From positions 2,873 through 66,872 of the forward strand of contig JBBTRH010000007.1 of NCBI GenBank assembly GCA_038065275.1: a stretch of 64,000 nt of DNA, read 5' to 3'. The notes under the pieces are model-generated. The model ran no database searches. It was not told where the DNA came from and saw only the letters and a list, made by a program, of their open reading frames with translations. Made by a program: the position numbers and the translations under genes. This document shows, one piece after another, positions 7,040 through 49,995 of this stretch (its first letter is position 1; every line of letters begins with the position of its first letter). Origin of the DNA: Patescibacteria group bacterium (GTDB lineage Bacteria; Patescibacteriota; Patescibacteriia; SBBC01; CAIJZX01).

Positions 7040-7212
7040 GGCTCCTCCCTGAACAGCGGTGTAGCAAAGTCCGTATCATTTCCCTCCCGGTTCTCCGACG
7101 GTGCGATGCAAGGTGCGATGAGGATACACTACGTGATGTTGATGGTGATGTCAAGGCGCTATGAAGAGTGCCGTTGTCGCGGCGTCAACTGCGTGGTACG
7201 CTACATTCCCCT

Positions 7213-8625: not shown

Positions 8626-8769
8626 GTGTTCAAGAGGAGCACGGTTCGCACCACCCAGCACCGCCGTCGGCTGATCCACGGTTACCGTAACCTGCTGGCC
8701 CGCTGGCTGACACCGTTCTGGAGGGTCAAGGACACCCGGCCGATCAGTGCGCGAACGTGAATCGCCCAT
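8626..8769 (+). CDS. Candidate small basic protein (47 aa)
   Basis: GTG start 8 nt after AAGGAGGA (8615-8622), reading MFKRSTVRTTQHRRRLIHGYRNLLARWLTPFWRVKDTRPISART. No homolog recognised, so this is speculative. Confidence 0.25.
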
Positions 8770-8926
8770 CACCCCTCGACACAAATCACCTCGGGGAGGA
8801 GCCTCCGATGCGAAGGCATCAGCTGACGCACACCCACAACCTGCGCTAGCGAGGAGGTGATCCGTATCTTCGCCGGGCTAATTCCCCGGTACGCCATACT
8901 GCCAGTCCGTTCGCGGGCTGGCTTTT

Positions 8927-10138: not shown

Positions 10139-10280
10139 AGGTCGTCAGTATAGCGGAATTGGGCGCTCCTGCCGACTTTCCTGCCCAGCCCCACTTTTAC
10201 GCCCAATGAATCGCTTGATGAAAGGTTTATAAAACGTCTGCCAATACTCGCGGCGCTCACGCGTCGCCGGAAAATCAAGG

Positions 10281-10409
10281 GTGAAGCTCCGCCAGCAGGA
10301 GCTGGCGGCCTCACCGAGATGCGGTGCGGAGCGTAACCCCGCACCGGAGGCCGAGCGCACCATACTCCTCCACCGACAGAGTCGGTGGCCTCCTGGTGCG
10401 CGGGTAAAA
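10281..10409. repeat. GC-rich structured repeat, copy 2
   Basis: 129 nt identical to the copy-1 core. It lies in the rpsF upstream region. Confidence 0.75.
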
Positions 10410-10595
10410 GTGGGGCTGGGCTTGCCAGGTTTTCCGGCTCATGGTACCCTGCGTCCACGATGGTTGTGTCCCGAAGCGCTACGGCCTTCGGGACTCCCCG
10501 CAGATTGTGGGGACCCGCGCGCCATCGATCCGATCGAGGCACACCTTCGACGGTCATGGCGGGCGCCTCCCGCTTATTAGGTATTCATCCACTCC

Positions 10596-11087
10596 ATGCC
10601 ACAGCACTACGAACTCCTCTACATCATACCCGGCACCAAAGGCGAAGACGAAGTCCCGGCTCTGACCGCCCAAATTCACGAGCTACTCAAGACGAATGGC
10701 GCCGCTATCGTCAAGAACGATTTTTGGGGCAAGCGTAAACTGGCTTATGAAATTAATCACATTCGCTATGGCTACTACGACACCGTTGATTTCGACATGG
10801 AATCGACGAAACTCGGCGCCCTGGAACAAGCTCTGCGCTTAAACGCCGGCATCTTACGATCCCAAATCACCAAACGCAAAGTTTTGACGTCCGAACAACA
10901 GACCGCCGCCACCCAGCTTCGCGAACGCATCACCGCCAAGCGCGAAGTGGCCAAAGAGAAAGAAGCCGCGGCCATGCTCAAACCGGCCGCACCGGTCGCC
11001 GCACCGGTCGCACCGGCCCCGGTTGAGACCAAGCAACTCGAAGAAAAGCTGGAGGAGATTCTTGGGTCAGACAAAGTTGAATTTTAA
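10596..11087 (+). CDS. rpsF: 30S ribosomal protein S6
   Basis: MPQHYELLYIIPG...; heads the conserved rpsF-ssb-rpsR arrangement. Confidence 0.9.
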   Translation: MPQHYELLYIIPGTKGEDEVPALTAQIHELLKTNGAAIVKNDFWGKRKLAYEINHIRYGYYDTVDFDMESTKLGALEQALRLNAGILRSQITKRKVLTSEQQTAATQLRERITAKREVAKEKEAAAMLKPAAPVAAPVAPAPVETKQLEEKLEEILGSDKVEF

Positions 11088-11111
11088 ACATCGTTCACTC
11101 ATTACACGCCT

Positions 11112-11564
11112 ATGAGTTTTAGCCTCAACCGCGCCACCATTCTCGGCAATATCACCCGCGACCCCGAGTCGCGGACGACCACCAGCGGCCAGTCAGTCGT
11201 CTCGTTCAGTGTTGCCACCAACCGCCGCTGGAAGGATCAAACCTCGGGCGAACTGAAAGAAGCCACCGAGTTCCATAACTGCGTCGCCTGGAGCAAGCTG
11301 GCCCAGACGATCAGTACCTACGTCCGCAAAGGCAGTAAAGTCTACGTCGAAGGCCGGATCCAGACCCGTTCCTGGGACGACCCGACCGGCGTCAAGAAGT
11401 ACCGCACTGAAATCGTGGCCGATAATCTGATTATGCTCGACAAGAAAGGCGACGCTCCGTCCGGCGCCGCTCCGGCTACTCCAGTCACAGCGCCAGCCGA
11501 TCCTACCGCCCAACCCGCCGCGCCGACCGAGGCCGAGATAAATATTGAAGACATCCCCTTCTAA
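11112..11564 (+). CDS. ssb: Single-stranded DNA-binding protein
   Basis: OB-fold N-terminus; Pro/Ala-rich linker; acidic C-terminal tail ...EDIPF. Confidence 0.9.
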   Translation: MSFSLNRATILGNITRDPESRTTTSGQSVVSFSVATNRRWKDQTSGELKEATEFHNCVAWSKLAQTISTYVRKGSKVYVEGRIQTRSWDDPTGVKKYRTEIVADNLIMLDKKGDAPSGAAPATPVTAPADPTAQPAAPTEAEINIEDIPF

Positions 11565-11587
11565 TTTATAAACGGTCAGCCCATTAA

Positions 11588-11650
11588 CCAACTAACGAGC
11601 TATCAAGCTAACCGTCTAACCGGCTAGCCAGCTAACGAGCTAACCAGCTG
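11588..11650. repeat. GCTAAC-type short tandem/degenerate repeat tract
   Basis: AACCAACTAACGAGCTATCAAGCTAACCGTCTAACCGGCTAGCCAGCTAACGAGCTAACCAGCTG immediately 5' of the rpsR ATG. Confidence 0.6.
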
Positions 11651-11654
11651 CCCC

Positions 11655-35855: not shown

Positions 35856-36410
35856 TTATCCGACGCGTTTCAGGGCTTGTTTGACGCGCTGTTCGATCGG
35901 CAGGGCCGGCGACGTCGTGGCGGCGGCTTCGCGGGCTTCTCGGCTCGTGTAACCGAGATTGACCAGCGCGTCAATGACGGTGCCCATGGCGCTATCGCCG
36001 GCCGCTTCATCGCGAACCAGTTTTCCTTTCAGGTCGACGATGATCCGCTCGGCGGTTTTGGTGCCGACGCCGGAAACTTTCGTCAGCAATCCGGCTTGAC
36101 CGCGTTCAATGGCCGCTTCCAAATCTTCGACGCTGGCCGCCGACAGCACCCCGAGCGCCAGGCGCGGCCCGACGCCGGACACGGTTAGGAGCTTCTCAAA
36201 GAGACGTCGCTCCGCGGCGCTCGCGAAGCCGTAGAGTTCAAGCGCATCTTCCCGCACGTGGAGATGGGTCGTCAACGCGGCTTCACTGCCGACCGGAAAC
36301 TGTTCCAGCGTGCGCGGCAACACAAAGAGACGGAACCCAACGCCGTGGACATCAACGGTCAGCGACCGCTCGTCGTGGGCCGTCACCAGGCCGCGGAGCG
36401 AAGCCAGCAT
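35856..36410 (-). CDS. ruvA: Holliday junction branch-migration protein RuvA
   Basis: OB domain at the N-terminus, two HhH motifs (LLTVSGVGPRLA, LTKVSGVGTKTAERI) and the C-terminal domain III. Confidence 0.9.
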   Translation of the reverse strand: MLASLRGLVTAHDERSLTVDVHGVGFRLFVLPRTLEQFPVGSEAALTTHLHVREDALELYGFASAAERRLFEKLLTVSGVGPRLALGVLSAASVEDLEAAIERGQAGLLTKVSGVGTKTAERIIVDLKGKLVRDEAAGDSAMGTVIDALVNLGYTSREAREAAATTSPALPIEQRVKQALKRVG

Positions 36411-36412
36411 CG

Positions 36413-38047
36413 CTAGGTGCTCCCCAACCGCAGACCGTTCTTCACCGTCCGCGGGAAGACGAAATAGTTCTGGATCTGCTCGAACTTTTTCTTCAGGCCG
36501 CTGTAACGGAAGACGCGGAGGCCGGGATCGCCGTTCCGGTATGTCCCGGTGATGATTTCTTCGCGGCCGTCGCGGTTGACATCCAGGACGGTCAACGTCA
36601 CGCCGCCCCGGTAGGCCTTCGACGTCGGCAAGAAGTGCGCTCGGAGTTTGCCGTTGATATCGAAGACGTTGATGTCCGAGTAATACCCCGGTCCGCCGAC
36701 GGTGATGATGTTCGCCCGGCCAGTGCCGAAGACGTCGCCGCTGGCCACGGTCAGCCCCGAAGTAAACTGGATGGGGTAGGGATTAAAGCGACGCACCACT
36801 TTCAGCTCATTCTTGTCATTCAGGTTGAGAATCGTTACTGAGCGGCCGTTGAGGCGCGGGGCCACGATGATCTCCGCCCGGGCATCGCCATCGAGATCGC
36901 CAGTTGCAATCGAGTACCCTTGACGCTGGGTCCGGTCGTAGGCGAACCCTTGGGCCAAGCTGGTGAATTTTTTCGTGGTCTGGTTATAAGTCCAAATACG
37001 AATCTGCGGGTAAGACTTGGCCGGAACGGTGATGAGCTCGTCAACACCGTCAGCGTTCACGTCGCCCGCCGCGACCGCCACCCCGGTTTTCCGCTCGGTG
37101 GAATAGGGATTGAAGCTGGTGACGAGCCGGCCGTCAGGCGTAAACACTTTCACCAGCGGGTCAGTGCCGGCGCCGGTTCCGACAATGACGTCGGCTTGAT
37201 GGTCCCCGGTGACGTCCCCCGCGGCGACGTTAATCCCGTTTCGATCTGATTTGGCGAACGCGTTGAACTGCTTGGTCGTTTTTTTCGTGACGGGGTCAAT
37301 CACCCGCACTGTCGGTTCGCGACCCGGAGCCAAACCGGCCACGATGATGTCCTTGATAACATGCACCGGTCCGCCGCCGGTCGGTGACGGTTTGTCGGGT
37401 GAAACAACAGGCCCAACGCATGATTGCTTGATCAGCGGCACGTCGAGTCCGGCCGGACAACCGTTGGTGGCGGTGCAAGTCCGGCTCTGGGTGCCGCTGA
37501 CACAGGCCGTCCATTCCGAACAGGTATAGGTTGGAACGCACGCCTGCAACGTGGCCGCGGTGGTTTTCGTAGCCACGTTAGACATGGTCGAGACGTTGCC
37601 GGCCTCATCGGTCGACTTCAAAGCGAAGAAGTACGTGGTGGCCGGTTGGAGGTTGGTGACCGTGGCGGTCTCGGTCGTGCCGGCCGGAGCCGGGATTGGC
37701 GGCCCAAGTACCAAGATGGCTGAATCGAAGGATGCTTCGGTGATCGGACTGGCGGCGTACCGCAGGTTGTAGCTGGTTGCTTGGCCGACGTTGCCGTCGT
37801 CACCAGGCGCCGTCCAGGTCAGCGTCACGGCCGTGGCCGTTGATGGCGCCGATTGTTCGCTGACCGGGCCCGGGATGAACAAAAACCCGGCGCCCGGACT
37901 GACGAACAGGGCGGTGCCGAGCGCCAGCGAGATGAGGCTGAGGGAAATGGCAATCAAGCCAATCGACACTTGATGGACGGTGTTGATTCGTTGCTTGGTG
38001 GCGATTTCTGTGCGGCGCGGGGGCATAAAGAATCGTGATAATAGCAT
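36413..38047 (-). CDS. Cell-surface protein with a fibronectin type III domain and FG-GAP/VCBS-like repeats
   Basis: N-terminal TM/signal anchor, FN3-like segment (…LTWTAPGDDGNVGQATSYNLRY…), then repeated GDVxxDGxxEII propeller blades. Start at the first in-frame ATG (Met6 of the tracked ORF, which begins at a TTG). Confidence 0.7.
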   Translation of the reverse strand: MLLSRFFMPPRRTEIATKQRINTVHQVSIGLIAISLSLISLALGTALFVSPGAGFLFIPGPVSEQSAPSTATAVTLTWTAPGDDGNVGQATSYNLRYAASPITEASFDSAILVLGPPIPAPAGTTETATVTNLQPATTYFFALKSTDEAGNVSTMSNVATKTTAATLQACVPTYTCSEWTACVSGTQSRTCTATNGCPAGLDVPLIKQSCVGPVVSPDKPSPTGGGPVHVIKDIIVAGLAPGREPTVRVIDPVTKKTTKQFNAFAKSDRNGINVAAGDVTGDHQADVIVGTGAGTDPLVKVFTPDGRLVTSFNPYSTERKTGVAVAAGDVNADGVDELITVPAKSYPQIRIWTYNQTTKKFTSLAQGFAYDRTQRQGYSIATGDLDGDARAEIIVAPRLNGRSVTILNLNDKNELKVVRRFNPYPIQFTSGLTVASGDVFGTGRANIITVGGPGYYSDINVFDINGKLRAHFLPTSKAYRGGVTLTVLDVNRDGREEIITGTYRNGDPGLRVFRYSGLKKKFEQIQNYFVFPRTVKNGLRLGST

Positions 38048-38132
38048 ACTGAAAAACCGCAAAAATGTGAAGGGGGGTCAACTGAAGGAATTTTCTAAAG
38101 CACCCGAGAAAATTGATGGATGTTTTTTAACG

Positions 38133-40730
38133 TTAGGGTTTACCTCTTATTTTCTTCGGATAAAGCTTTTTAGCTTGACCGATGACTTCCTTCGCCGCCC
38201 AGTCAGGAGCATCACCGAAACTTTCCAAGTTCGTTCCGTCCGGCGCATATGTTGATACGACTTGTCGGGCACCGGATCCGATGCCTCCAGCTTTCACAAT
38301 CGCGCCTAAAGATTTCAGCGACTCTTTGGCGGCAATGGTCGTGGCCGGATTATCACTGCCGCCATCGGCTGAAACCAAGACTAATCGTAAACGTTCCTTG
38401 CCTGAAGTATGTTCACTCGCGTCTTCTTGAATCATTCGTCGAACGGTCTGCAATCCCAAGTGATCGGGAGTTCCGCCGCCGACATTCTCCTGCAAAGATC
38501 TCCAAACCCTGGCTTGTTCTTTCGGCCCCCATGATGTGCCGAGCGGCAATTCCACCTTACCCGATCCACCTTGAAAACTCACTAACGCCACGCGCAAATC
38601 CAGCGGAGAAATCAACTTAATTTTCTGTCGTTTGAACTCCTGGGCCGCCCCGTACATGGAATCCATCATCAGGAACACGAACGTTTGCTGATCTTCCCAT
38701 TTCGGCCGACCACTGCTTGGATCGGTCTCAGACATGGACCCGCTTTTATCAACCGTCAAAAATGCATCAAACCCGCCGTAAATTTGTTCACGTTCCACCT
38801 TTCGTTCGTACTTGGAAAAACCCGACGGATCAGCCTCGCCGGCCGCCATATCCAAAACCGTTTCCACCGGATCAACGAGTTCCTGACCGCGAGAAAGTCT
38901 GATGGGTGCGGTGTATCTAATTCGGTTTACTAAATTATCTTGAATGACTTTTTGCCATTCCGCCAGCAACCGTGATCGAATATTCCGTCCTTGGTTGTCT
39001 CTCTTTTCTCGTGCTTCGGAAATCTTTCTCATAATTACCTTGGCCTCTTCTGGCGTACAATCGGCCTCGGCGGCAAAACGAAGTGCGGCCAGCTCCTCCG
39101 GCGCTCGCTCTTTCTGCTCCAGGGCTCGCTCAGCATCAGCCATCAGTTTTTCCAGCTGTTCGTCACTTAACACTTCCGCCTCTTGTTCGCCAAAATCACC
39201 TTCAAAAGCATCATCAGATTTTTCTTCGTCCGTTTCTTGGACGTCCATGTTTGGATCACCCGGCGGGGTGGCGTCTAATCTCTGCCAACGCTGGCCATCC
39301 CAGGCTTCCGCCCAGGCATGCGCCGTGCCGGAAGACATCACGGTGGCATTCTGCTTATCTTTTACTTTAACATAATGGCCGGATACCAGACACGATGGAA
39401 TTCCTATTCGGCGCAATAAAGCCACAAAGTAGGTGTTGGCGACATCGCAATCCGCCTGCCGGTGTTGCTCGATGCGTGAAAAGTATTCATTCGGGTCGCC
39501 GGACCGATAAACCGCATTGAAACTGGAATCATTGGAGTATTTTAGTGTGCTTCTGACAAAAGCCTTCAACGCCCGAGCTTTATCAAGAGCTGATTGATTG
39601 GATCTTACAATTTCTTCCAACTTACGTTGAGTTTCAGGAGAAAGAACTTCTGTCCCTGGCTGTGGCGCACTGGGGGCAACTTCTAAAACCGGTGTTGTAT
39701 TTTTACCAATCTCGGCTGAAAAAGAAATGAGTCCACGTTGCTTACTGGCGTCGATAATGAAACTGCCATGTCCATCACTTTTCACCGGCAAGACTTCACC
39801 ACCATGGGTCCGGATGGTTTGGACATCAGGCGCGTATCCATAAGGCATCGGAAGAATGGTTCTCTTGCCTCCATGTATCGTTCCGGCTACGGTTTTCCTG
39901 GTTTTTGCATCAAGCGACGTTTCTTCAACATCAGCAAGCGAGCTAGCCGACTTCTCCCAGCGCATGGCTCGATTGTTCCAGGTGTCAAAATCATCACCAC
40001 GGTAATACCCGCCGTAGAATGGTCGGACAGTGAAATATGCGCCCGGTTCATTCTCTTTGGATCGTTCCATCTCCTCCATGCTTGGGGTCAACGTGTCCTC
40101 TTGCGGCGGCGGAACATTCAAATCGGGTTGCTCCTGTTTCTGTTTCATGACTTCCGGCGGCGGTGGCTCCTGGGCTTTCGCTCGAGCTTCTTCCGTATCA
40201 CGAGATTCCAACCAATCCAGTGCTCCGGCTAATCGTGATTCAAACCATTGAAATTTGCTCCCGTAACTGATATTCCCTGAAGCCATCAGTTCAGAAACAT
40301 CAACCTCTCCTTCGGTCGATTGGCTCTTTACAATCCGGGTAAAAATCCGCTCCACCTCCGGGCGAACTTTTGGCATCGGCTGACCCAACTGCTTTGCCCG
40401 AAAACAAGAGAGGAGTTCGTTAACCCGATTTGGTTCAAGGCCAGTTGGTTCAGTTTGAGCCATGACTTCCGCCTGTAAGGCTTCAGTGTTTTCTGGGGAC
40501 GCCCTGACCGATCGATCGTATGCGCCGAGGGTTTCAAAAACGTGTTTCGCCGTCCGGGCTGATTTGCTCCGCTTGCCCAGCGATTGCCAAGAGCGCAGGC
40601 CGGCAATTCCCTCTCTTGATTGTAGGGCCTGGCCGATAGCCGCATTTTTGGCCTGGCGAAAAGCGTCTTTGGCGTCAAAACTGGCGATCTCTGGTTGTTC
40701 GGGATGACGACTTAATTCCGGGTTAGACAT
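38133..40730 (-). CDS. Large protein with transglutaminase-like cysteine-protease core and C-terminal von Willebrand factor A domain
   Basis: TGc core …QADCDVANTYFVALLRRIGIPSCLVSGHYV…GTAHAWAEAWDGQRWQRLDATP (Cys-His-Asp). vWA with MIDAS motif VDKSGSMS. Its start overlaps the RT stop by 8 bp. Confidence 0.75.
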   Translation of the reverse strand: MSNPELSRHPEQPEIASFDAKDAFRQAKNAAIGQALQSREGIAGLRSWQSLGKRSKSARTAKHVFETLGAYDRSVRASPENTEALQAEVMAQTEPTGLEPNRVNELLSCFRAKQLGQPMPKVRPEVERIFTRIVKSQSTEGEVDVSELMASGNISYGSKFQWFESRLAGALDWLESRDTEEARAKAQEPPPPEVMKQKQEQPDLNVPPPQEDTLTPSMEEMERSKENEPGAYFTVRPFYGGYYRGDDFDTWNNRAMRWEKSASSLADVEETSLDAKTRKTVAGTIHGGKRTILPMPYGYAPDVQTIRTHGGEVLPVKSDGHGSFIIDASKQRGLISFSAEIGKNTTPVLEVAPSAPQPGTEVLSPETQRKLEEIVRSNQSALDKARALKAFVRSTLKYSNDSSFNAVYRSGDPNEYFSRIEQHRQADCDVANTYFVALLRRIGIPSCLVSGHYVKVKDKQNATVMSSGTAHAWAEAWDGQRWQRLDATPPGDPNMDVQETDEEKSDDAFEGDFGEQEAEVLSDEQLEKLMADAERALEQKERAPEELAALRFAAEADCTPEEAKVIMRKISEAREKRDNQGRNIRSRLLAEWQKVIQDNLVNRIRYTAPIRLSRGQELVDPVETVLDMAAGEADPSGFSKYERKVEREQIYGGFDAFLTVDKSGSMSETDPSSGRPKWEDQQTFVFLMMDSMYGAAQEFKRQKIKLISPLDLRVALVSFQGGSGKVELPLGTSWGPKEQARVWRSLQENVGGGTPDHLGLQTVRRMIQEDASEHTSGKERLRLVLVSADGGSDNPATTIAAKESLKSLGAIVKAGGIGSGARQVVSTYAPDGTNLESFGDAPDWAAKEVIGQAKKLYPKKIRGKP

Positions 40731-41805
40731 AATCAGTATTTAGTCCGAGGCTTAGGCGAAGTTTCTCCCGCAGGTTATAGCTTTTCAACTGCGCCAGTAA
40801 ACCAATGTATGAAGCGAGCTGTTTCCCGACCAGACTCTGATATCCTTGGCTAGCCGCGTCGCCAGCCACCGCCAACGATGCCCTCCGCAATCTGATTCTC
40901 GGTACCAACCCATAAGGAAAAGCTACGGCTCCCAACATATCAACTCCCTGACTTAAACTACGGATAATGATTTTCTCGTCTGGTAAGGTTAAGTGGAGTC
41001 GAGTACGTAAAAAATCTTTCGCTTTCTGCGATACCTCGATTAAATGATTTTTATTCGCGGACACGATGTAAAAGTCGTCATTATACCGAGCGTAGCAACG
41101 AATATCACACACTTGTTTCATGAAGTAATCGAACTCATGCAAATAGATATTGGCGAATACTTGGGAAGTAAGGTTGCCGAGCGGAATCCCACGACCGCCA
41201 CTTCTCGAGTCCGAGCCTCGAAGTCGAGGACTGACATCTCCGGCGGAGCCGGATCCGGCTTCGCCGGAAAAACTGTTAATAATTGTCCGGCACAGTCGGA
41301 TATATTGCGGATCCTTCACTTGGCGACGGATGAGTGACAGTAAAATCTGATGATCGACGCTCCCGAAAAAGTTAGCGACGTCTCCGTGAAAAACATAGAC
41401 CTCTCGAGAAAAACTCTTGCTTTCCTGCCGCAAAAAATCCCAGATCCGGCTGATAGCCGCTTGCGTGCCCTTTCCCAGCCGACACGAATATGAATCAAAA
41501 AAGAATTGCCGATCGAACAGCGGGCACAAGGCCGAATATATCGCTTGGTGCACAATTCGATCCCGCACCGTCGCTTTATGAATAGAACGAAATTTAGGAT
41601 CTCGAACATAAAATCGGTTGTACTCGTCGTGCCGGTACGTTCCCGACTTAAGCTCTTTCGACAACTGCATCAGCTCCGATTCTAAATGGCGCTCGAAATC
41701 GATAACATCCCGTCGTTCCTGTTTTCCGCGTCGAAACCGTCTCCAGGCAAGATAGAGATTATCAAATCCTATTAACCCACTAAATGTTTGCAAACTATAT
41801 GTCAC
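40723..41805 (-). CDS. Diversity-generating retroelement reverse transcriptase
   Basis: RT motifs RSIHKATVRDRIVHQAIY, SYSCRLGKGTQAAI, FHGDVANFFGSVDH, the DGR-type motif GIPLGNLTSQVFANIYL (with the [I/L]GxxxSQ signature) and catalytic YARYNDDFYIV. GTG start with no ribosome-binding site. The gene has lower GC than its surroundings. Confidence 0.85.
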   Translation of the reverse strand: MTYSLQTFSGLIGFDNLYLAWRRFRRGKQERRDVIDFERHLESELMQLSKELKSGTYRHDEYNRFYVRDPKFRSIHKATVRDRIVHQAIYSALCPLFDRQFFFDSYSCRLGKGTQAAISRIWDFLRQESKSFSREVYVFHGDVANFFGSVDHQILLSLIRRQVKDPQYIRLCRTIINSFSGEAGSGSAGDVSPRLRGSDSRSGGRGIPLGNLTSQVFANIYLHEFDYFMKQVCDIRCYARYNDDFYIVSANKNHLIEVSQKAKDFLRTRLHLTLPDEKIIIRSLSQGVDMLGAVAFPYGLVPRIRLRRASLAVAGDAASQGYQSLVGKQLASYIGLLAQLKSYNLREKLRLSLGLNTDYV

Positions 41806-42164
41806 AAGATTCTTTCGACCCGCCGGTCGTTATAAAGATTTATAAAACCTATCAGATTTTCATTCCGCTACTGGCGAATTTCCCGAAACCGCAACGATAT
41901 ACTCTCGGACAGGTGATTGATCGTTCCCTTTTAAGCATGTTGGAATACATCTTTGAGGCCAATGCTATGCCGCTACCCTTGCGAGAGTCCTTACTCCTCC
42001 GAGCGATGGCGAAATGCGAATTGACAAAGATACTTATTCGGCTGTCATGCGAGAGTAGCATCATCAATAACACGCAGTACTTCCAACTCATGTCTAATCT
42101 TCAGGAGGTTGGTAAAATGCTGGGAGGATGGATCAAATACATTCGCCATCTGCCGGTAAAGTAA
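41784..42164 (+). CDS. avd: Avd-like four-helix-bundle protein (accessory variability determinant candidate)
   Basis: 126 aa with …FPKPQRYTLGQVIDRSLLSMLEYIFEAN… and C-terminal …EVGKMLGGWIKYI, matching the layout of the four-helix-bundle (bAvd) family. It ends 12 bp before the TR but is on the opposite strand, and its start overlaps the RT start head-to-head. Confidence 0.55.
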   Translation: MFANYMSQDSFDPPVVIKIYKTYQIFIPLLANFPKPQRYTLGQVIDRSLLSMLEYIFEANAMPLPLRESLLLRAMAKCELTKILIRLSCESSIINNTQYFQLMSNLQEVGKMLGGWIKYIRHLPVK

Positions 42165-42175
42165 TGACTGTTCTC

Positions 42176-42299
42176 ACAACGACCGCGGGGCGGGCACCCA
42201 ACTTCGGGTTCGAATTGTCAGCGTCGTTCCAGTTCACGTTGACCTGCCTATCCTGCGGATTCCAGTTGGCATTGGCGACCTTCGATGACGACACGCGGC
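42176..42299 (-). repeat. DGR template repeat (TR)
   Basis: 124 bp; in minus-strand sense rich in AAY codons (…AAT GCC AAC TGG AAT…AAC GTG AAC TGG AAC…). It differs from the VR at 18 positions, 17 of them TR adenines. Non-coding; the overlapping tracked ORFs are rejected. Confidence 0.9.
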
Positions 42300-42513
42300 C
42301 ACGCCCCGTATTCCTTGATCCATCCATACGCGCGGAGCCTTCCGCAGAAAACCCCTGACCGATATTCCCACAAGGAACGTCGTTGTGCTTCACTTGTTCA
42401 TCCCGCCCGGAGCCAACACTGTTGGATCTCCGATTCGGTGGAATGAGAGTCGGCGAACCAATCTCTCACATACGTATGTCGTACAGGAGGGTGGCTTCAT
42501 AAGCCGAAAATGG

Positions 42514-43164
42514 CTATCTGATTATTCTGTTGGCAATGATCGGTACTTCCCGTAAAAAATACTTCTTTACCTGCGCCCAGGTAGCGTCAAAATATATTTC
42601 CGGGTTTGGGTCGGTTTCGGCGTCTTCAAAAAAGACCAAGCTCTTCAAAATGTGGTGGTAATTGTGAGCCACCGACGGATACTGAATTTTCAATCTCTTA
42701 ATAATGTCCTCCAAGGATTCAACATTATTGGCGCACCAGTACAAATCAAAATAATCTCTTTTTTTACCGCGCTGTGAGATGGCGGTGATCTTCATGACCG
42801 CGATATCAAGCTGATTCAGTATCCGGATCGATCCGTAACGGAGAAAATTTTGTTTTGGGAGAAAGAATGGGTAGGCGATGAAACTTATTTTGCTTTTGGA
42901 CAGCTCGCCGTAAATGGTATTTTTTTCTTCCACGGTCGTCTCCCAGTTTTTATAGCGGGCAAAGTTCGATAGCAACTTTTTGGTATCAAAATCTGAATCG
43001 AGCGTAAAAAAATCTAAATCCAGAGACCGACGATGGCCGGCCTGAAGCGCCAGAGCCGTTCCGCCCGCCAAATACCATCCCGACGTAGTAAGCCATTGCT
43101 GTTGAGACAAAAAATCAAGTGCCTTCCTAGTGCGGTGCGGTAATGTTTGGTATTGCCAGTTCAT
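42514..43164 (-). CDS. AbiEii/AbiGii-family nucleotidyltransferase (type IV toxin-like)
   Basis: LAGGTALALQAGHRRSLDLDFF motif typical of DUF1814/AbiEii nucleotidyltransferases; AT-rich. Confidence 0.65.
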   Translation of the reverse strand: MNWQYQTLPHRTRKALDFLSQQQWLTTSGWYLAGGTALALQAGHRRSLDLDFFTLDSDFDTKKLLSNFARYKNWETTVEEKNTIYGELSKSKISFIAYPFFLPKQNFLRYGSIRILNQLDIAVMKITAISQRGKKRDYFDLYWCANNVESLEDIIKRLKIQYPSVAHNYHHILKSLVFFEDAETDPNPEIYFDATWAQVKKYFLREVPIIANRIIR

Positions 43165-43385
43165 GCTTTGAGTAGAAGTGTCCAGAGCGCCCTAGTCCTC
43201 GGTCGCAGACTTCGGGAACGTGTGATTATTTTTTTTAGCAGTTTTTGATCATAAAAATCCAAGACCCACCGCGCCTCTTTATCGTTCCCAAAATCAGCCA
43301 CCCGTTCAACAATATATTGGGCGTTCTTACGCGGATCAATATTTTTGGGATCAACATCCCAAAATAGCGTCGGCCTAAATTTCAT
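43161..43385 (-). CDS. Small hypothetical protein (possible cognate partner of the AbiEii-like gene)
   Basis: 74 aa; 4-bp overlap with the downstream nucleotidyltransferase gene suggests translational coupling. Confidence 0.4.
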   Translation of the reverse strand: MKFRPTLFWDVDPKNIDPRKNAQYIVERVADFGNDKEARWVLDFYDQKLLKKIITRSRSLRPRTRALWTLLLKA

Positions 43386-43458
43386 ATCACTATCAGTATA
43401 TCAGATTGCAAGCTCATTCGAAATGATAAATAATAAAGAAAAGTCTAGCCATTAAAAC

Positions 43459-46140
43459 TTAAAGTATCTCAACAACGACCGCGGGGCGGGCACCCAACCC
43501 CGGGCCCGACCTGCCAGCGTCGCTCCAGCTCACGCTGACCCGCCTACCCCGCGGATCCCAGTGGGCATCGGCGACCCCCGATGACGACACGCGGCTGTCT
43601 AATAGCCATGACCATTGAGATTTGGTCGCATCGTCGTCATAAGCGTCGAAACTGTGATTATTATGCTCTTCAAGTTCACGGCGTTGAAGAAGAAGATATT
43701 CGGACATCGTTAAGCCATTCCACTTTTTTTGTTGAAACAGCGTTTCCAGTTGATCCGGCGTTTTACCCTTCGTTTCCGACGGAACTGGTCTTGATTGGTA
43801 CATTAGCATATATGCTTTCACCGGACGGTTACGGGTTTGTGATTGTTTTGTTCCCTCGGCAATGTATGGATCGCCGTATTGATCGGGGGCGGACAAGCCG
43901 GTATGAGGTTTTTTAGCCATCTGCTCAATAACGGCGTTGATGGATCGCCCTTGAAGTTCGGCCTGCGGCAATATCATCGCCTTATCAAACCCCATTTTCA
44001 GCGCTTCTCGAATTCGCGCTTCGCCCTCCGGGGAGAATCGAATTTCTTTCGGCAGATTGTCGACAAAGTCGTAGAGGTCGTGTTCTTCATAGAACTCCTC
44101 CGAAACGCGCCGTGTTTCCGTAACGTCAAGCTTGATTTCCTTTCCTTCAAACCTTTCGGCAAAAGTCAACGAGGCGGCTGCCCATTCGCGTCGCAGGACT
44201 CGTTGGTCAACTAACTCAATGCCTGCTTCGCCCTCCATCACGACTTTACCCTGATGCGCGCCTTTTCCAACTCCTAACATACGCCATGGTCGTTTGCTAC
44301 GGTCTCCTTTTTTCATCCACTGCGACCGGCCGCCCGTTTGTTCGGGACTGTACACCACTTCCGTGCCGTCAGCTAAAAACTTGCTGGCCTCAACCGGTTT
44401 CGGGGCCTCTTTTAATGTTTCGGCTTCTCGCGGTACGCGCGGAGACAGAGCGCCGATTTCTTGCGGGGTGAGAAATCGATGTCCGCCTTCGGTATGAATG
44501 GAGTCCACCGATTCATCCAGCCGATAGGCCTGAAGAAATTTCCCTAGCAGGACGCGATCTTCCGACGGTAAACCCTTCCGGCCGGCCCATTCGTGCAACT
44601 GGTGGGTCAGAAACTCGGTCAGGCTTTGCCGGCGCATGCTGTGAAGCGCTTTCCGGTAGGCGCCGAGCCAGGACAAGACCAGGCCGGTATCAAGCACCGC
44701 CGCCCGCAGGTAGGAGGCTTCCCTTTCCGTCGGGGTCAAGGCGTTGGCTTGGCCGGTATAGCTACGCTGGATGTCGGCCATAAGATTAGCAAACCGCCAC
44801 AGCGTTCCGCCGGCTTCTGGCTGGGTTTTTAGTTCCTGGCGCTTAACATTGGTGGTGGCGTCCACCACGTCTTCATATTCCGGCGCAAGTTCCTCGGCCG
44901 GTAGACGAAGACGGCCGTTTTGGTCCATCAGTCCGGCCGTCAGCAATTCGTAGAGTTCCGGATTTTCCGGCGTCTGTGGCTGGTAGCCGATTTCTATTTC
45001 CCCCAACTCGCGAGCGACTTCAATCGGCAGATCCGACCGGTCGGGGTGTTTTTCCGACGGCAGGTTGGCCGAGCCGATAAACCCGAACTCGGACGAAAGC
45101 CGCTCAACCCGGCCGGCCCAAGCCGCGAAGGTGATGGCCTCGCCCGGCCGGCGGCCGGAGATCTGTTTGATCAGCGACCGCAGAGCATCCGGTGGATAGC
45201 CGTTCATTTCATCCATGTAGAAAATACCGCCCGGCCCTGGTTCCGTGCTGCGCGAGGTTTCCTTGCCGGTTAAGGCCTGACCCAGCTGACCGTAGTGGAT
45301 GTACGATCCTTCGCCGTCAATGGCTTTCGAACCCAGCAAAGGACGAATGTCGGATTTGGCCTCTTCCCCGACTTCAAGCGGGGATCGACCGACCAGGCGT
45401 CGGGATGCGTTCCTGGCGAGCGCGGTTTTTCCTGTCCCGGTTTCGCCGACAAGAAGGAGCGGGCGATTTTGGTTGAAGATGACCAGATACTCGATCATTT
45501 TCTCAAAATGTTGTTCGCGCGACGGAGTCCAGGCGAATCCTTCGGTTCGGAGTTGGTCGTTGTATTCCACCATGCGCTCAAACGACAACCGAGCCGCAAA
45601 CTCAGGGCTTTGATGTTCCAAAGAATCCAATCGCCGTTCTTGCGCCTCGATCTGCGCGGATAACTCACCAAGGCGGATTTGCGTCAGTTCGTCAGGGTCG
45701 CGGTCGCGATGCCGGAAAACAGTGCGGTAGAGTTTTTCTCTCTCGGCGAGGTACGAGTCGCGAGTGTCGCGCAGCTTTCGAAAATCAACCATCGGTTCGG
45801 CCAGCTTGATCCTTTCTTCGTACCACTGACGTAATTTTTCCATGAATGCTTTTTGTGTTTCTGGATTGTGCCACCGCTGTGCGATGGCATCTTTGACGGT
45901 AGCTATCCTATCAGGGCCTGGATGCTCTTCGTGCCGCCGGCGACCGTAGTCTTCCCACAACGCAAAAAGCTCTTCCGCTCCTCGAACCGCCTCGGAGTTG
46001 AAGACGGAAGTCTCCGGCGATCCTTGCGGTTCTGCCCCTTGCGGTGAGCGCGTCGAACCCGTGGTCTCGGGAGGGAGCGGTTCTACCTCTTGCTCGATTC
46101 TTTCCCAAATTGGATGGGTACCGCCTCGTTCAGAGCTCAT
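43459..46140 (-). CDS. DGR target: AAA+ ATPase (AAA_5/MoxR-like) with C-terminal C-type-lectin-like variable domain
   Basis: Walker A LLLVGETGTGKTALA and Walker B IFYMDEMNG. The VR forms the last 41 codons. Start set at Met14 (MSSERGG…) of the tracked ORF. No signal peptide. Confidence 0.8.
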   Translation of the reverse strand: MSSERGGTHPIWERIEQEVEPLPPETTGSTRSPQGAEPQGSPETSVFNSEAVRGAEELFALWEDYGRRRHEEHPGPDRIATVKDAIAQRWHNPETQKAFMEKLRQWYEERIKLAEPMVDFRKLRDTRDSYLAEREKLYRTVFRHRDRDPDELTQIRLGELSAQIEAQERRLDSLEHQSPEFAARLSFERMVEYNDQLRTEGFAWTPSREQHFEKMIEYLVIFNQNRPLLLVGETGTGKTALARNASRRLVGRSPLEVGEEAKSDIRPLLGSKAIDGEGSYIHYGQLGQALTGKETSRSTEPGPGGIFYMDEMNGYPPDALRSLIKQISGRRPGEAITFAAWAGRVERLSSEFGFIGSANLPSEKHPDRSDLPIEVARELGEIEIGYQPQTPENPELYELLTAGLMDQNGRLRLPAEELAPEYEDVVDATTNVKRQELKTQPEAGGTLWRFANLMADIQRSYTGQANALTPTEREASYLRAAVLDTGLVLSWLGAYRKALHSMRRQSLTEFLTHQLHEWAGRKGLPSEDRVLLGKFLQAYRLDESVDSIHTEGGHRFLTPQEIGALSPRVPREAETLKEAPKPVEASKFLADGTEVVYSPEQTGGRSQWMKKGDRSKRPWRMLGVGKGAHQGKVVMEGEAGIELVDQRVLRREWAAASLTFAERFEGKEIKLDVTETRRVSEEFYEEHDLYDFVDNLPKEIRFSPEGEARIREALKMGFDKAMILPQAELQGRSINAVIEQMAKKPHTGLSAPDQYGDPYIAEGTKQSQTRNRPVKAYMLMYQSRPVPSETKGKTPDQLETLFQQKKWNGLTMSEYLLLQRRELEEHNNHSFDAYDDDATKSQWSWLLDSRVSSSGVADAHWDPRGRRVSVSWSDAGRSGPGLGARPAVVVEIL
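43472..43595 (-). repeat. DGR variable repeat (VR) inside the 3' end of the AAA+ ATPase gene
   Basis: 124 bp aligning with the TR end to end. It encodes …RVSSSGVADAHWDPRGRRVSVSWSDAGRSGPGLGARPAVVV, against TR-encoded …RVSSSKVANANWNPQDRQVNVNWNDADNSNPKLGARPAVVV. Both share a GC-rich 3' block GGTGCCCGCCCCGCGGTCGTTGT. Confidence 0.9.
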
Positions 46141-46166
46141 AATGATTGAAAAGTATGTGACATAAA

Positions 46167-46271
46167 CCCAGCACCACAATGGTTGATTCGTTGTTATTTC
46201 TGAAAAAAGTGCAGTCTTTACTCACGTATACGTATTTTTTTTAGTTCGCATTATACCATTGTGGTGCTGGG
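46167..46271. repeat. CCCAGCACCACA inverted-repeat element, copy 2
   Basis: CCCAGCACCACAATGGT (46167-46183) and ACCATTGTGGTGCTGGG (46255-46271), a perfect 17-bp IR around a 71-bp AT-rich spacer. It lies in the divergent region between the DGR target gene and uvrB. Confidence 0.7.
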
Positions 46272-46418
46272 TAAACGTTGCAACTTACACCATAATCGTT
46301 CTTTTGTCAATCTAGATTTTTTTATTCTGTTCGACTGCTATTATAGCAGAGATTGGGAGAAAAATCAAGTTTTTTCTTCAAGACCTATATGCCATAGACA
46401 TGGTAGGCTACCCGCATC

Positions 46419-48503
46419 ATGCCCCCGCCGCGGTTCCAACTCGCCGCTCCTTTCCAGCCGACCGGCGACCAGCCGGCGGCGATCGCCAAGTTGGTGTCCG
46501 GATTGCGGGCCGGCCACCAAGCCCAGACGCTCCTCGGCGTGACCGGGTCGGGCAAGACCTTCACCATGGCTAATGTCATCGCGGAGCTCAACCGACCGGC
46601 GCTGATTATTTCCCATAATAAAACCTTGGCCGCGCAATTGGCCAGCGAGTTTAAGGACTTTTTCCCGCACAACGCCGTCGACTATTTCGTCTCGTATTAC
46701 GATTACTACCAACCCGAGGCGTACATGCCGCAGAAAGATTTGTACATCGAAAAAGAATCGCAGATCAACGAGGAAATCGACCGCTTGCGCAACGCCGCCA
46801 CGCGCGACTTGCTCAGCCGCCGCGACGTGATTATCGTGGCTTCCGTGTCCTGCATCTACGGCCTCGGCAGTCCGACGGCTTACCGGCAAGCGGCGATTTC
46901 CGTCGCCCGCGGTCAGCGCTTGCCGCGCCTGCCGTTCCTCAGGCAATTGAACTCGGCGCTCTACCAGCGGAACGACTACGACCTGACCCGCGGAACGTAT
47001 CGCGTCCGCGGCGAGGTGATTGACATCGTTCCGGCCTATGCCCAGGACTTGATCCGTCTTGAATTCGATGATCACGCCCTCCGGCGCATCTCAACGGTTG
47101 ACCAGCTGACCGGTCGAGTCGCCGCGGAGCATCAACGCATCACCATTTTTCCCGGCCGGCAGTTCGTGACTCAAGCCGCACAGTTGCCGGCCATCGCTCA
47201 AGCTATCCGAGCTGAGTTAGCCGTACGGGTAAAAGAGTTTGAGCGACTGCATAAGCCCCTCGAAGCCGAGCGGATCGCCCAGCGGACGAATTTCGACCTG
47301 GAGATGCTCCTCGCCACCGGCCTCACCGGCGGCATTGAGAACTACTCGCGGTACTTCGACGGCCGCCAACCGGGTCAGCCGCCAGCGACGTTGTTCGAAT
47401 ACTTCCCCGCCCCCGCCAAGGCTATGGCGAGCGGGCCCAAAGATTTCCTCCTGTTCATCGATGAGTCCCACATGACTATCCCCCAATTCCGCGCCATGTA
47501 TGAGGGCGACCGGGCGCGGAAACAGACGCTTGTTGATTACGGTTTTCGCCTGCCCTCGGCGCTCGACAACCGTCCCTTGAAGTTTGAGGAGTTCCTGAGT
47601 CGCATCCACCAACGGGTGTTCGTCTCGGCCACGCCGGCGCCGTATGAAATCCAAGAATCGCAACAAGTGGTCGAGCAACTCATTCGGCCGACCGGCCTGC
47701 TCGATCCGGCCGTCGCAATTCGTCCGACCGAACACCAGGTTGATGACCTGCTGAAAGAAATCAAAGCGGTGACCGGCCGGGGTCAGCGGGTGATCATTAC
47801 TACCCTCACCAAGCGCATGGCCGAGGACCTGACCGAGTACCTCCAGGAGTTGCAGATCAAGGTCCAGTACCTCCACTCCGACGTCGAGACTTTTGAACGG
47901 CTGGAAATCCTGCGCGACTTGCGACTCGGCGTCTATGACGTGGTGGTCGGCATCAATCTCCTCCGCGAGGGGCTTGATTTGCCCGAAGTGTCGCTGGTAG
48001 TCATTCTCGACGCCGACAAAGAAGGGTTCCTCCGTTCGGAAACCGCCCTAATGCAGGTCATGGGCCGGGCGGCCCGTCATGTCGAGGGCCGCGTGGTCAT
48101 GTACGCCGACGCGGTCACCGGCTCGATGCGACGGGCGATCGACGAAACCAAGCGCCGCCGCGCCACCCAGGAATCGTACAACTGGCGACACGGCATCACG
48201 CCGAAGACCATCGAGAAGGCCGTCCGCGAGGACCGCCTGGCCGGTCGGAAGCGCGAGGTGGAAGATGTCCCGACCATCGCCGCCGCTGACGTCCCGCCCG
48301 ACGAACTGCCTTTTCTCATCAAGACGCTCACCAATCAAATGGACTTAGCCGCTAAGAACCTCGAATTTGAAAAGGCGGCCGCCCTGCGGGATGAAATAAC
48401 CAAGCTTGAAAAAAGCCTGCCGCCGAAAGCCCGGACAAGGGGCGGTTTGCGGAGCAGCGGCCGGGGCAAGAACGTTCGGCGGCGGTCAATTGGCCGACGG
48501 TAG
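46419..48503 (+). CDS. uvrB: Excinuclease ABC subunit B
   Basis: GVTGSGKTFTMANVI Walker A, helicase motifs, and the C-terminal UvrB/UvrC interaction region. Confidence 0.95.
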   Translation: MPPPRFQLAAPFQPTGDQPAAIAKLVSGLRAGHQAQTLLGVTGSGKTFTMANVIAELNRPALIISHNKTLAAQLASEFKDFFPHNAVDYFVSYYDYYQPEAYMPQKDLYIEKESQINEEIDRLRNAATRDLLSRRDVIIVASVSCIYGLGSPTAYRQAAISVARGQRLPRLPFLRQLNSALYQRNDYDLTRGTYRVRGEVIDIVPAYAQDLIRLEFDDHALRRISTVDQLTGRVAAEHQRITIFPGRQFVTQAAQLPAIAQAIRAELAVRVKEFERLHKPLEAERIAQRTNFDLEMLLATGLTGGIENYSRYFDGRQPGQPPATLFEYFPAPAKAMASGPKDFLLFIDESHMTIPQFRAMYEGDRARKQTLVDYGFRLPSALDNRPLKFEEFLSRIHQRVFVSATPAPYEIQESQQVVEQLIRPTGLLDPAVAIRPTEHQVDDLLKEIKAVTGRGQRVIITTLTKRMAEDLTEYLQELQIKVQYLHSDVETFERLEILRDLRLGVYDVVVGINLLREGLDLPEVSLVVILDADKEGFLRSETALMQVMGRAARHVEGRVVMYADAVTGSMRRAIDETKRRRATQESYNWRHGITPKTIEKAVREDRLAGRKREVEDVPTIAAADVPPDELPFLIKTLTNQMDLAAKNLEFEKAAALRDEITKLEKSLPPKARTRGGLRSSGRGKNVRRRSIGRR

Positions 48504-48563
48504 CTGACACTTGCGCTCCTGGCGGAACGTGCTAAGATAGCCCCCGTTCTTTGTCATTTCTCC

Positions 48564-48683
48564 TTGTCCGACGAAGCCTTCTTGTCCACCGAAGCTTCAG
48601 CGTAGGTGGAGGCGTAGTCGGGCTTGTCCGACGAAGCCTTCTTGTCCACCGAAGCTTCAGCGTAGGTGGAGGCGTAGTCGGGC
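48564..48683. repeat. Perfect tandem duplication of a 60-bp unit
   Basis: TTGTCCGACGAAGCCTTCTTGTCCACCGAAGCTTCAGCGTAGGTGGAGGCGTAGTCGGGC occurs twice. Each unit contains the hairpin CCACC-N14-GGTGG. The array sits between a candidate promoter (TTGCGC-N16-TAAGAT, 48511-48538) and the M16 peptidase start. Confidence 0.85.
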
Positions 48684-48714
48684 TAAACCCGAAACCCGCT
48701 AGGAGGTGATCGCC

Positions 48715-49995
48715 GTGAGCCGGCTGTCCCAACGGAAATTGGCCAACGAATTTACCGTCATTTACGACCCCTTCGTCAGTTTGACCGTCGGGGTGGCCCT
48801 GGCCGTCATCGGCGGTTATCGCGACGACCAGGAGCGGCCGGGCATCCGCCACGCGCTTGAGCATAAACTCTGGCGTTCGACCCGGTTGCATCCGACCGGG
48901 ATGTCGTTCGCCCGTCATTGGGAACGGTTCACCCCGATGCTCCACGCCGAAACCGACAAATCGTCAGTGGTGTTCCACTGCGAGACGTCCCACCGGCATG
49001 TCCGGCCGGCTATCCGACTGATGGCCGAGATCGCTAAGCATCCGACCTTCCCGGCGGAACAAGTCCGGAAAGAAACGGAGCGGCTCCAAGAGGAGCGCGG
49101 CGACGAGGAAGACTCTCCCGAAACGAGATTGAACGAGGTGCTGGACCGGCTGATGTTCGCCGGCGACGGGCTCGGGCGCTCGGTTGATCGCGGCCACGCT
49201 ACCGTCGGCCAGTTCCGGCCCGCGGAACTGCGGACCCTCTACCGGCAGAAATTCGTCGGCCAACGCTTGGCGCTGATCGTGTCCGGAGGATTCACCCGTG
49301 ACCTGGTCGAACCGCTTATCACCCGGCTGTTCTCCGACCTCCCGCCCGGAACGGTTCACCAGTCGGCGGCGCTGAATTACCGCCGGCTCCGCGGCGGCAT
49401 CCGCCTGACCAGGGCCGAGTGCCAGAAACTGACGTTCCTGATCGGTTTCCCGACTTTCGGATTCGACCAGGAGTTGCCACGGATAGCCCTGGGCGTGATC
49501 CGCAACCACTTTTCCTCCCGGATCACTTCACGGCTGGGGATGAAGTTGGACGCCGCCGGGTTCGTTTACAGTTCCACCGACTCTTTGTGGTTCTGGCGTG
49601 ATGTCGGTCAATACTACTTTCAGGTTCCCCTCTTCCCCGAGAAGTTTTCCCGGGCCCTGGAAATCATCGCCGCTGAGCTCAATCTCCTCCGGGCCGAAGG
49701 CGTCACGGCTGACGACTTGGACCACGCCAAACATAACCTGGCCATGGAGGCCGGGGTCCGGTTCACCAAGCCGGAGGACGCCGCGCCGTTCTACGGCCGG
49801 GGGTGGGTGAATTGCGGCGGAGCGCCGGTACTCTCCGCCCCCCGTTACCGGCGGGTACTTGGGCGCGTCGATTGTCGCCTGACCCGCCGGGTAGCACGAA
49901 TGATCTTTACGAATGGGCGACTGGTTCTCGTCGCCCACGGACCGATCCCGAAGCTGACCAAGACGCAGATCCGTTCCTTACTGCGACTGCGTTGA
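48715..49995 (+). CDS. M16-family zinc metallopeptidase (pitrilysin-like)
   Basis: Inverted zinc motif HALEHKLW (HxxEH). GTG start 8 nt after AGGAGG. Confidence 0.75.
   Translation: MSRLSQRKLANEFTVIYDPFVSLTVGVALAVIGGYRDDQERPGIRHALEHKLWRSTRLHPTGMSFARHWERFTPMLHAETDKSSVVFHCETSHRHVRPAIRLMAEIAKHPTFPAEQVRKETERLQEERGDEEDSPETRLNEVLDRLMFAGDGLGRSVDRGHATVGQFRPAELRTLYRQKFVGQRLALIVSGGFTRDLVEPLITRLFSDLPPGTVHQSAALNYRRLRGGIRLTRAECQKLTFLIGFPTFGFDQELPRIALGVIRNHFSSRITSRLGMKLDAAGFVYSSTDSLWFWRDVGQYYFQVPLFPEKFSRALEIIAAELNLLRAEGVTADDLDHAKHNLAMEAGVRFTKPEDAAPFYGRGWVNCGGAPVLSAPRYRRVLGRVDCRLTRRVARMIFTNGRLVLVAHGPIPKLTKTQIRSLLRLR

Follow-up and report, generated by a model that had tools for sequence, protein, structure and literature searches.

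A pair of overlapping genes lies inside the diversity-generating retroelement (DGR) of a Patescibacteria group bacterium, on a 64,000-nucleotide stretch of contig JBBTRH010000007.1 (assembly GCA_038065275.1, positions 2,873 to 66,872) that was analysed at its full length and is called the window below. A previous inspection of the letters, referred to here as the sequence-only reading, had described a two-gene module with a 4-bp overlap between the template repeat (TR) and the variable repeat (VR) of this DGR, and both open reading frames (ORFs) were found exactly as claimed, overlapping in the ATGA at 43164-43161. The upstream ORF encodes a 74-aa protein of the DUF6922 family and the downstream ORF a 216-aa nucleotidyltransferase (NTase). 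The order on the minus strand is target gene with VR, DUF6922, NTase, TR, Avd (inverted), reverse transcriptase (RT) and a gene with transglutaminase (TGase) and VWA domains. The locus recurs in Hainich groundwater assemblies. Coordinates are collected in Table 1; names such as L083 denote loci in other genomes.

Table 1. The gene pair and the DGR that surrounds it in the window.
Feature	Position	Strand	Basis
DUF6922 gene, 74 aa, putative antitoxin or regulatory partner	43161..43385	-	Pfam PF21956
DUF1814/AbiEii-MenT-type NTase gene, 216 aa, putative toxin	42514..43164	-	Pfam PF08843
Inserted cassette, ~910 bp (promoter stub and two genes)	42511..43420	-	Alignment with pair-less L083, L091, L092 and L097
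Inferred extended -10 box TGaTATACT, 9 nt before the DUF6922 ATG	43395..43403	-	Cross-locus motif conservation
Conserved pre-TR region, untouched by the insertion	42300..42510	-	Blocks TTTCGGCTnATGAAACCAC and GATTGGTTCGCCGACTCTCA and a ~95-nt block, kept in seven relatives
TR	42176..42299	-	124-nt repeat shared with VR
VR, 3' end of the DGR target gene	43472..43595	-	124-nt repeat of TR
DGR target gene, 906 aa, AAA_5 (MoxR/dynein-like) ATPase with C-terminal VR	43459..46179	-	Pfam AAA_5, E 8.8e-10
Avd accessory gene, on the strand opposite to RT and TR	41784..42164	+	Pfam bAvd, E 1.1e-14
DGR RT	40723..41805	-	Pfam RVT_1, E 1.8e-15

Identity of the NTase and its DUF6922 partner

The NTase matched the Pfam family AbiEii with an E-value of 3.6e-15 and 57 bits (cut-off 22.5) as well as 14 AbiEii models of PADLOC (best 4e-8), and an identical protein from a Patescibacteria metagenome-assembled genome (MAG) is listed in NCBI as "nucleotidyl transferase AbiEii/AbiGii toxin family protein". 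A scan of NCBIfam gave no match for the NTase or for DUF6922. In an alignment of 31 members of the NTase family the residues G34-G35-T36, D49, D51, K125, R136-D137 and D140 were invariant; the segment GGTALALQAGHRRSLDLDF corresponds to residues 34-52. Following our reading of published motif descriptions of DUF1814 toxins, on which the assignment of motifs III and IV was based (PMC7450476, PMC11375011), the invariant residues would constitute the pol-beta-type motifs I and II (hG[GS]...DxD) and the C-terminal motifs III and IV (K...R and RDxxD).

The AlphaFold2 (AF2) model of the NTase reached a predicted local distance difference test score (pLDDT) of 91.6. Its best Foldseek matches were JHP933 (4OK0/4O8S, E ~4e-7), MenT1/MenAT1 (8AN4/8AN5) and MenT4 (6Y56), with a probability of 1.00 and template modelling (TM) scores of ~0.45-0.5, and lower ranks were occupied by poly(A) polymerases, ANT(2'')-Ia, LnuA and CCA-adding enzymes. 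Single-sequence and profile searches of the Protein Data Bank (PDB) with the NTase returned no significant match, and the link to MenT and JHP933 was given by fold comparison alone. Profiles and model together identify the larger ORF as an NTase of the AbiEii/DUF1814 family with a predicted bi-lobed, MenT/JHP933-like fold. The same assignment in the sequence-only reading, which hinged on profile similarity to AbiEii, was thereby borne out by Pfam, PADLOC and the fold. The family is large, with 3724 database clusters at E <= 1e-3, the best 120 of which are 65-79% identical to the query. A scan of a viral-contig collection found no relative of the NTase, which leaves a phage-borne origin of the pair unsupported.

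The 74-aa partner matched Pfam DUF6922 with an E-value of 2.5e-17 and 62.5 bits (cut-off 27). It is thus a DUF6922 protein and not AbiEi, to which it shows no similarity. The members of DUF6922 are small stand-alone proteins (1157 representatives at 50% identity, nearly all of 70-140 aa); close relatives of the window protein are 68-84% identical, and proteins that fuse DUF6922 to AbiEii are rare (P0304 and P0373). The AF2 model (pLDDT 90.4) predicts an extended N-terminal segment followed by four short helices. Beyond its own family, DUF6922 matched nothing in phmmer and profile searches of the PDB, in Foldseek against the PDB, in Pfam up to E 10, or in PADLOC, NCBIfam and PHROGs, and a literature search found no paper that mentions it.

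Insertion of the pair into the VR-TR spacer

The host element is a genuine DGR, which comprises RT, Avd and an adenine-specific TR/VR pair with the VR at the 3' end of the target gene. TR and VR are 85% identical over 124 nt, and 17 of the 18 mismatches fall on TR adenines. Avd also matched the NCBIfam model DivGenRetAVD (E 2.5e-19, 69.5 bits), under the 80-bit cut-off of that model. Gene callers place the RT start at ~41670, which gives a protein of 315 aa, and the RT is followed by the TGase-core/VWA gene of 865 aa. Two other assemblies of the same population carry an identical VR; being 99.98-100% identical to the window, they are uninformative on current DGR activity.

Seven distinct relatives of this DGR, with RTs 54-73% identical to that of the window, were examined (L083/L089, L091, L092/L093, L094, L095, L096 and L097). 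A-biased TR/VR pairs were present in all seven, and the order AAA_5 target, TR, inverted Avd, RT, TGase/VWA in six (L095 has no TGase/VWA gene), whereas the DUF6922-NTase pair was found in none. The VR-TR spacer measures 231-340 bp in the relatives and 1172 bp in the window. Homology to L083, L091, L092 and L097, which runs from the target gene through the VR, ends at ~43421 and is back at TTTTCGGCT (42510), 3 nt past the NTase stop codon, these limits being accurate to a few bases. A right junction at ~42459, drawn from L083 alone, was superseded by the one at ~42510 after alignment with L091, L092 and L097. The shared order, the missing pair, the short spacers and the alignable junctions of the seven relatives indicated that the pair is an insertion in the lineage of the window.

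The insert is made up of 35 bp upstream, the two genes and ~3 bp, and takes the place of ~75-100 bp of spacer that is not conserved. In L083, L091 and L092, the closest three relatives, the replaced segment contains the hairpin GTTTGAAAAACC-GTAG-GGTTTTTCAA, which is missing from L094-L097. Conservation across the class covers some 40 nt that follow the VR and some 210 nt that precede the TR; both stretches are retained in the window, and the insertion spares every conserved DGR element. For the pre-TR region RNAalifold predicted a covarying stem-loop of 19 pairs, 7 of them with compensatory changes, and no Rfam family matches positions 42300-42510. This region is probably a structured 5' part of the DGR RNA. 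A different insertion was seen in L083/L089, the closest sister DGR, where 409 bp with a 108-aa GIY-YIG ORF (3712-4120) separate TR and Avd; in the window the end of Avd lies 11 bp from the TR.

The sequence-only reading had also put the GC content at about 38% for the pair against about 60% for the genome; the measured values are 44.0% for the pair and 56.2% for the window. Low GC is shared by Avd (43.8%) and RT (47.4%) and is a trait of the whole 8-kb island, not of the pair in particular. The island (38100-46260) has a GC content of 51% and a GC content at third codon positions (GC3) of 0.41-0.60 in its genes, against ~0.76 in the flanking uvrB and FG-GAP genes, and is as a whole compositionally foreign. 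Its flanks hold genes for RuvA, FG-GAP and UvrB proteins. Rfam and tRNA scans of 38000-47000 and 36000-49000 gave nothing relevant, with two sub-threshold chance matches and no tRNA attachment site.

Several further features of these DGRs were observed. The inversion of Avd is also found in L014, L029, L038, L083, L091, L094 and L097; since TR and RT lie on the strand opposite to Avd, a TR transcript running on downstream would be antisense to avd. Moreover, in this DGR class RT and TR are bracketed by the AAA_5 (MoxR-like) target gene and the ~860-aa TGase-core and VWA gene (38133-46179 in the window), the latter overlapping or abutting the RT stop codon, and this bracket is kept in six of the seven relatives (L083/L089, L091, L092, L094, L096 and L097). 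MoxR-type ATPases and VWA proteins are classical functional partners, and the DGR may therefore diversify one half of a two-protein machine. Finally, several sister DGR islands adjoin serine recombinases, a transposase, a ParB-methylase gene or a faint terminase-like match (L091 8581-9987; L097 593-2374 and 10542-12999; L092 1551-2465), which suggests that the island as such is carried by mobile elements that have integrated. Genes of these kinds are absent from the flanks of the island in the window, where the neighbours are UvrB and FG-GAP/RuvA.

Distribution of the pair and its placement beside DGRs

The distribution of the pair was surveyed in one genome per species. A relative was found in 333 genomes, and the best 80 loci were analysed, most of them labelled Patescibacteria or unclassified MAGs and ~10 labelled otherwise (Gammaproteobacteria, Bdellovibrionales, Smithella). 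DUF6922 lies directly upstream of the NTase at all 80 loci, and the position of the stop/start overlap is common to 69 of 81 loci. The surroundings vary: the 135 immediate neighbours of the pair represent 157 Pfam families, mostly housekeeping, with EF-G as the commonest (5 loci), followed by SMC, topoisomerase, aminoacyl-tRNA synthetases, Pol A and gyrase B. A second full DUF6922-NTase pair is present at L062 (10001-10648 and 14341-14930), and at L059, L072 and L080 an extra, divergent AbiEii-like gene (28-31% identical) lies within a few kb. The pair is thus a conserved bicistronic module with the generic layout of a toxin-antitoxin operon, namely a small upstream partner, translational coupling and a patchy, mobile distribution. 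Placement in a defence island, one of the contexts proposed by the sequence-only reading, was ruled out by the RuvA, FG-GAP and UvrB flanks in the window and by the heterogeneous housekeeping neighbours in other genomes.

A DGR RT or Avd was found in the flanks of four of the 80 pair loci (972 kb of flanks in total), and the other 76 had no DGR within up to 10 kb. With the pair absent from all seven related cassettes, the suggestion that it travels with the RT-Avd-TR unit failed, and the pair is not a co-inherited DGR accessory gene like Avd. At all four DGR-linked loci the pair lies within 0.7 kb of a DGR component. L014 has the nested order of the window (VR 9545-9664, pair 9777-10657, TR 10865-10984, inverted Avd, RT) with an RT 37% identical to that of the window. 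At L038 the pair lies between two tandem target genes that are 98.8% identical (8655-11654); their differences are concentrated in the VR, and a third VR-like copy is present in the gene upstream of the TR (7138-7256). At L029 the pair follows the RT by ~20 bp and at L069 it stands beside an RT remnant. The distance from the VR-bearing target gene to the start of the pair that follows it is 73-124 bp in the window, L014 and L038; the RTs of L014 and L038 are only 35-37% identical to that of the window. The DGR-linked pairs occupy scattered positions in the NTase tree and are 63-69% identical to one another, which equals the family mean of 65%.

DGRs are common in the genomes of the candidate phyla radiation (CPR) (PMC8144416). 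In the simplest reading, the unusually long, AT-rich and dispensable DGR spacers of these densely coded genomes are permissive landing sites, which is supported by the GIY-YIG selfish gene carried in the spacer of the sister element L083.

Across the 80 loci a consensus TTTTGaTAaAAT lies 6-9 nt upstream of the start codon. A scan with consensus promoter models did not call a promoter for the cassette, the -35 being poor, and the terminator scan of 41700-43700 found no terminator-like site. The conserved extended -10 box, only 9 nt from the ATG in the window, suggests that the cassette has a near-leaderless promoter of its own. The NTase start in the window deviates from that of the family. Instead of the usual MDTxxxxINW... 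the window reads LDTSTQSMNW (43164-43185, minus strand), the ATG being changed to CTG and an ATA seven codons downstream to ATG. Because the usual ATG is lost and the later one used, the 7-residue shorter NTase and the ATGA overlap of the window are derived.

The pair as a probable toxin-antitoxin-like DGR passenger

DUF1814 toxins such as MenT1, MenT3 and AbiEii add pyrimidines to the 3'-CCA ends of tRNAs and thereby block translation. They are paired with antitoxins of unrelated families (the 68-aa MenA1; COG5340 with AbiEi, MenA3 and MenA4; COG4861), which make the toxin auto-phosphorylate at a strictly conserved Ser/Thr of its active site (PMC7450476, PMC10435456, PMC11375011, bioRxiv 10.64898/2026.01.19.700257). 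The explanation that we favour, with a probability of about 0.72, is that the pair is a self-contained, horizontally mobile toxin-antitoxin-like operon whose insertion into the dispensable mid-section of the VR-TR spacer was recent and confined to this lineage, and which the DGR carries as a passenger and not as a component. If it acts like its homologues MenT1, MenT3 and AbiEii, the 216-aa NTase would add nucleotides to tRNA 3' CCA ends and so block aminoacylation and translation. The co-translated 74-aa DUF6922 protein would keep it inactive, probably by direct binding, and might do so by causing T36, the invariant threonine of motif I, to auto-phosphorylate, which is how the structurally unrelated antitoxins act on MenT1, MenT3 and AbiEii. 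The operon would be driven by its own near-leaderless promoter. Such a module may serve phage defence by abortive infection, or it may do no more than keep itself in the genome, and the DGR island along with it; stabilisation of the DGR element, as proposed in the sequence-only reading, is possible.

Several observations weigh against this explanation. DUF6922 resembles no known antitoxin, as no similarity to AbiEi, MenA1 or any solved structure was detected. Identities of ~65% (NTase) and ~70% (DUF6922) across many Patescibacteria lineages are unusually high for a toxin-antitoxin pair, and fusions of the two proteins are atypical for classical pairs of this kind. No transposase, recombinase or terminal repeats that would account for movement of the cassette were found. 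The loss of the family start codon makes the expression level of the NTase in the window uncertain. Finally, the four loci and the window that abut DGRs are suggestive of a mild, unexplained enrichment beyond random placement, as judged on a small sample without a whole-genome control.

The conservation and the natural fusions would also fit a different enzyme, a regulated, non-toxic NTase for RNA 3'-end repair or modification or for small-molecule nucleotidylation, with DUF6922 as its activating or specificity subunit. Some DUF1814 proteins are not linked to antitoxins (PMC7450476), and the fold resembles, at lower rank, ANT(2'')-Ia, LnuA and CCA-adding enzymes. We regard this as unlikely, for the nearest structural and profile matches belong to the toxin clade of JHP933, MenT and AbiEii, the patchy, multi-copy and context-free distribution is typical of selfish or defence modules, and a small overlapping upstream gene is the classical toxin-antitoxin layout. 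An origin of the pair in the ancestor of this DGR class, with later deletion from the relatives, was rejected on parsimony and deserves next to no credence: the recurrence of the nested order in the distant DGR of L014 could be cited for it, but it would require no fewer than seven precise deletions that occurred independently, or one deep deletion and a regain, the relatives share a homologous spacer where the window has the cassette, and the window NTase is no closer to that of L014 (67% identical) than to random family members (mean 65%).

Two other explanations give the adjacency a function. The co-oriented cassette, having replaced a hairpin-bearing spacer, could supply the pre-TR/TR RNA from its promoter or by read-through from the target gene and thus tie mutagenesis to the regulation of the operon. 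Pair, target gene and TR all lie on the minus strand, 41700-43700 is free of terminator-like sites, the segment that was replaced is a hairpin in L083, L091 and L092, and L014 and L038 likewise have the pair in the orientation of the neighbouring target gene. Such coupling seems decidedly improbable, since the hairpin is missing in L094-L097 and hence is not class-wide, co-orientation holds for 59 of 73 upstream neighbours in all contexts and hence is not DGR-specific, and the conserved pre-TR region may hold a promoter of its own. The pair might instead be a true accessory of some DGRs, with an NTase that tails or primes the 3' end of the TR RNA or cDNA, or that limits mutagenesis to stressed cells. 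The five DGR-abutting loci, counting the window, and the recurrent position just after the VR-bearing target in DGRs with distant RTs speak for this, as does the scatter of the DGR-linked pairs over the NTase tree, which suggests repeated capture; nevertheless, we hold it to be very improbable, because the A-biased TR/VR pairs of the seven closest relatives indicate that these DGRs work without the pair, no DGR is near 76 of the 80 pair loci, the layouts vary (after the VR, after the RT in L029, beside an RT remnant in L069) and known DUF1814 enzymes act on tRNA. It is a long shot that the adjacency in the window, L014, L029, L038 and L069 is non-accidental, with the template RNA placed under the operon promoter by co-oriented insertion upstream of the TR, or with the NTase acting on the 3' end of DGR RNA or cDNA. 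In the first case hypermutation would rise when the antitoxin is depleted, as under stress or phage attack, and in both cases a toxin-antitoxin pair would be wired into targeted mutagenesis.

A toxin-antitoxin-like passenger of this composition was compared with known systems. With AbiE (AbiEi-AbiEii of Streptococcus agalactiae and Lactococcus; type IV, now proposed as type VII) the pair shares the two-gene operon, the upstream partner and the downstream DUF1814 NTase, in which the GG[ST]...DxD and the C-terminal K...R and RDxxD motifs recur. However, AbiEi is a COG5340 protein of ~200-290 aa with a winged helix-turn-helix and a C-terminal domain, whereas the partner here is a 74-aa DUF6922 protein; identity of the NTase to characterised AbiEii proteins is low and at profile level only. 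As no cognate AbiEi/COG5340 gene lies upstream, the pair does not belong to the AbiE system. MenAT1 of Mycobacterium tuberculosis (Rv0078B-Rv0078A) is similar in that a short upstream ORF (68 aa, against 74 aa here) precedes a compact DUF1814 NTase (~190-216 aa), that MenT1 (8AN4/8AN5) is among the best structural matches, and that its conserved motif-I Ser/Thr corresponds to T36 of the window NTase. In contrast, MenA1 is described as MazE-related and largely disordered, with binding via one long helix, whereas DUF6922 is predicted to form a compact four-helix structure whose model matches neither the 8AN5 chains nor another PDB entry. The upstream ORF shows no homology to MenA1, and the pair is not a MenAT1-like system. 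JHP933 from the Helicobacter pylori plasticity zone (4O8S/4OK0) is the best Foldseek match (E ~4e-7, TM ~0.49) and is similar in size and in its location on a mobile island, but it is only 17-18% identical in sequence, has another partner gene and a function that is itself poorly defined. The module is best described as a DUF1814 toxin-antitoxin-like pair with a new partner family; that it is a toxin-antitoxin pair inserted opportunistically is probable.

The host element resembles the Patescibacteria-restricted DGRs of clade 2 (Roux et al., 2021, PMC8144416) in being cellular, in belonging to a CPR bacterium from groundwater and in combining RT and Avd with an A-biased TR/VR pair and a VR at the C-terminus. 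It differs from them in the recognisable AAA_5 domain of the target and in the TGase/VWA gene at the end of the cassette. A literature search found no published toxin-antitoxin pair inside a DGR cassette.

What is new here is an antitoxin-candidate family for a known toxin, together with a probable toxin-antitoxin pair as the passenger of a DGR. The insertion reveals that the VR-TR spacer can do without its middle part. Small selfish genes accumulate in the spacers of these cassettes, the pair in the window and the GIY-YIG ORF in a sister element, and an ORF located between VR and TR is not necessarily a DGR accessory gene, which calls for caution in DGR annotation. Throughout a large clade of DUF1814 NTases that spans the Patescibacteria, DUF6922 is apparently the obligate partner. 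It would be a fourth, uncharacterised partner family of these enzymes and would provide, with 74 residues, a minimal test case for the model of antitoxin-induced auto-phosphorylation.

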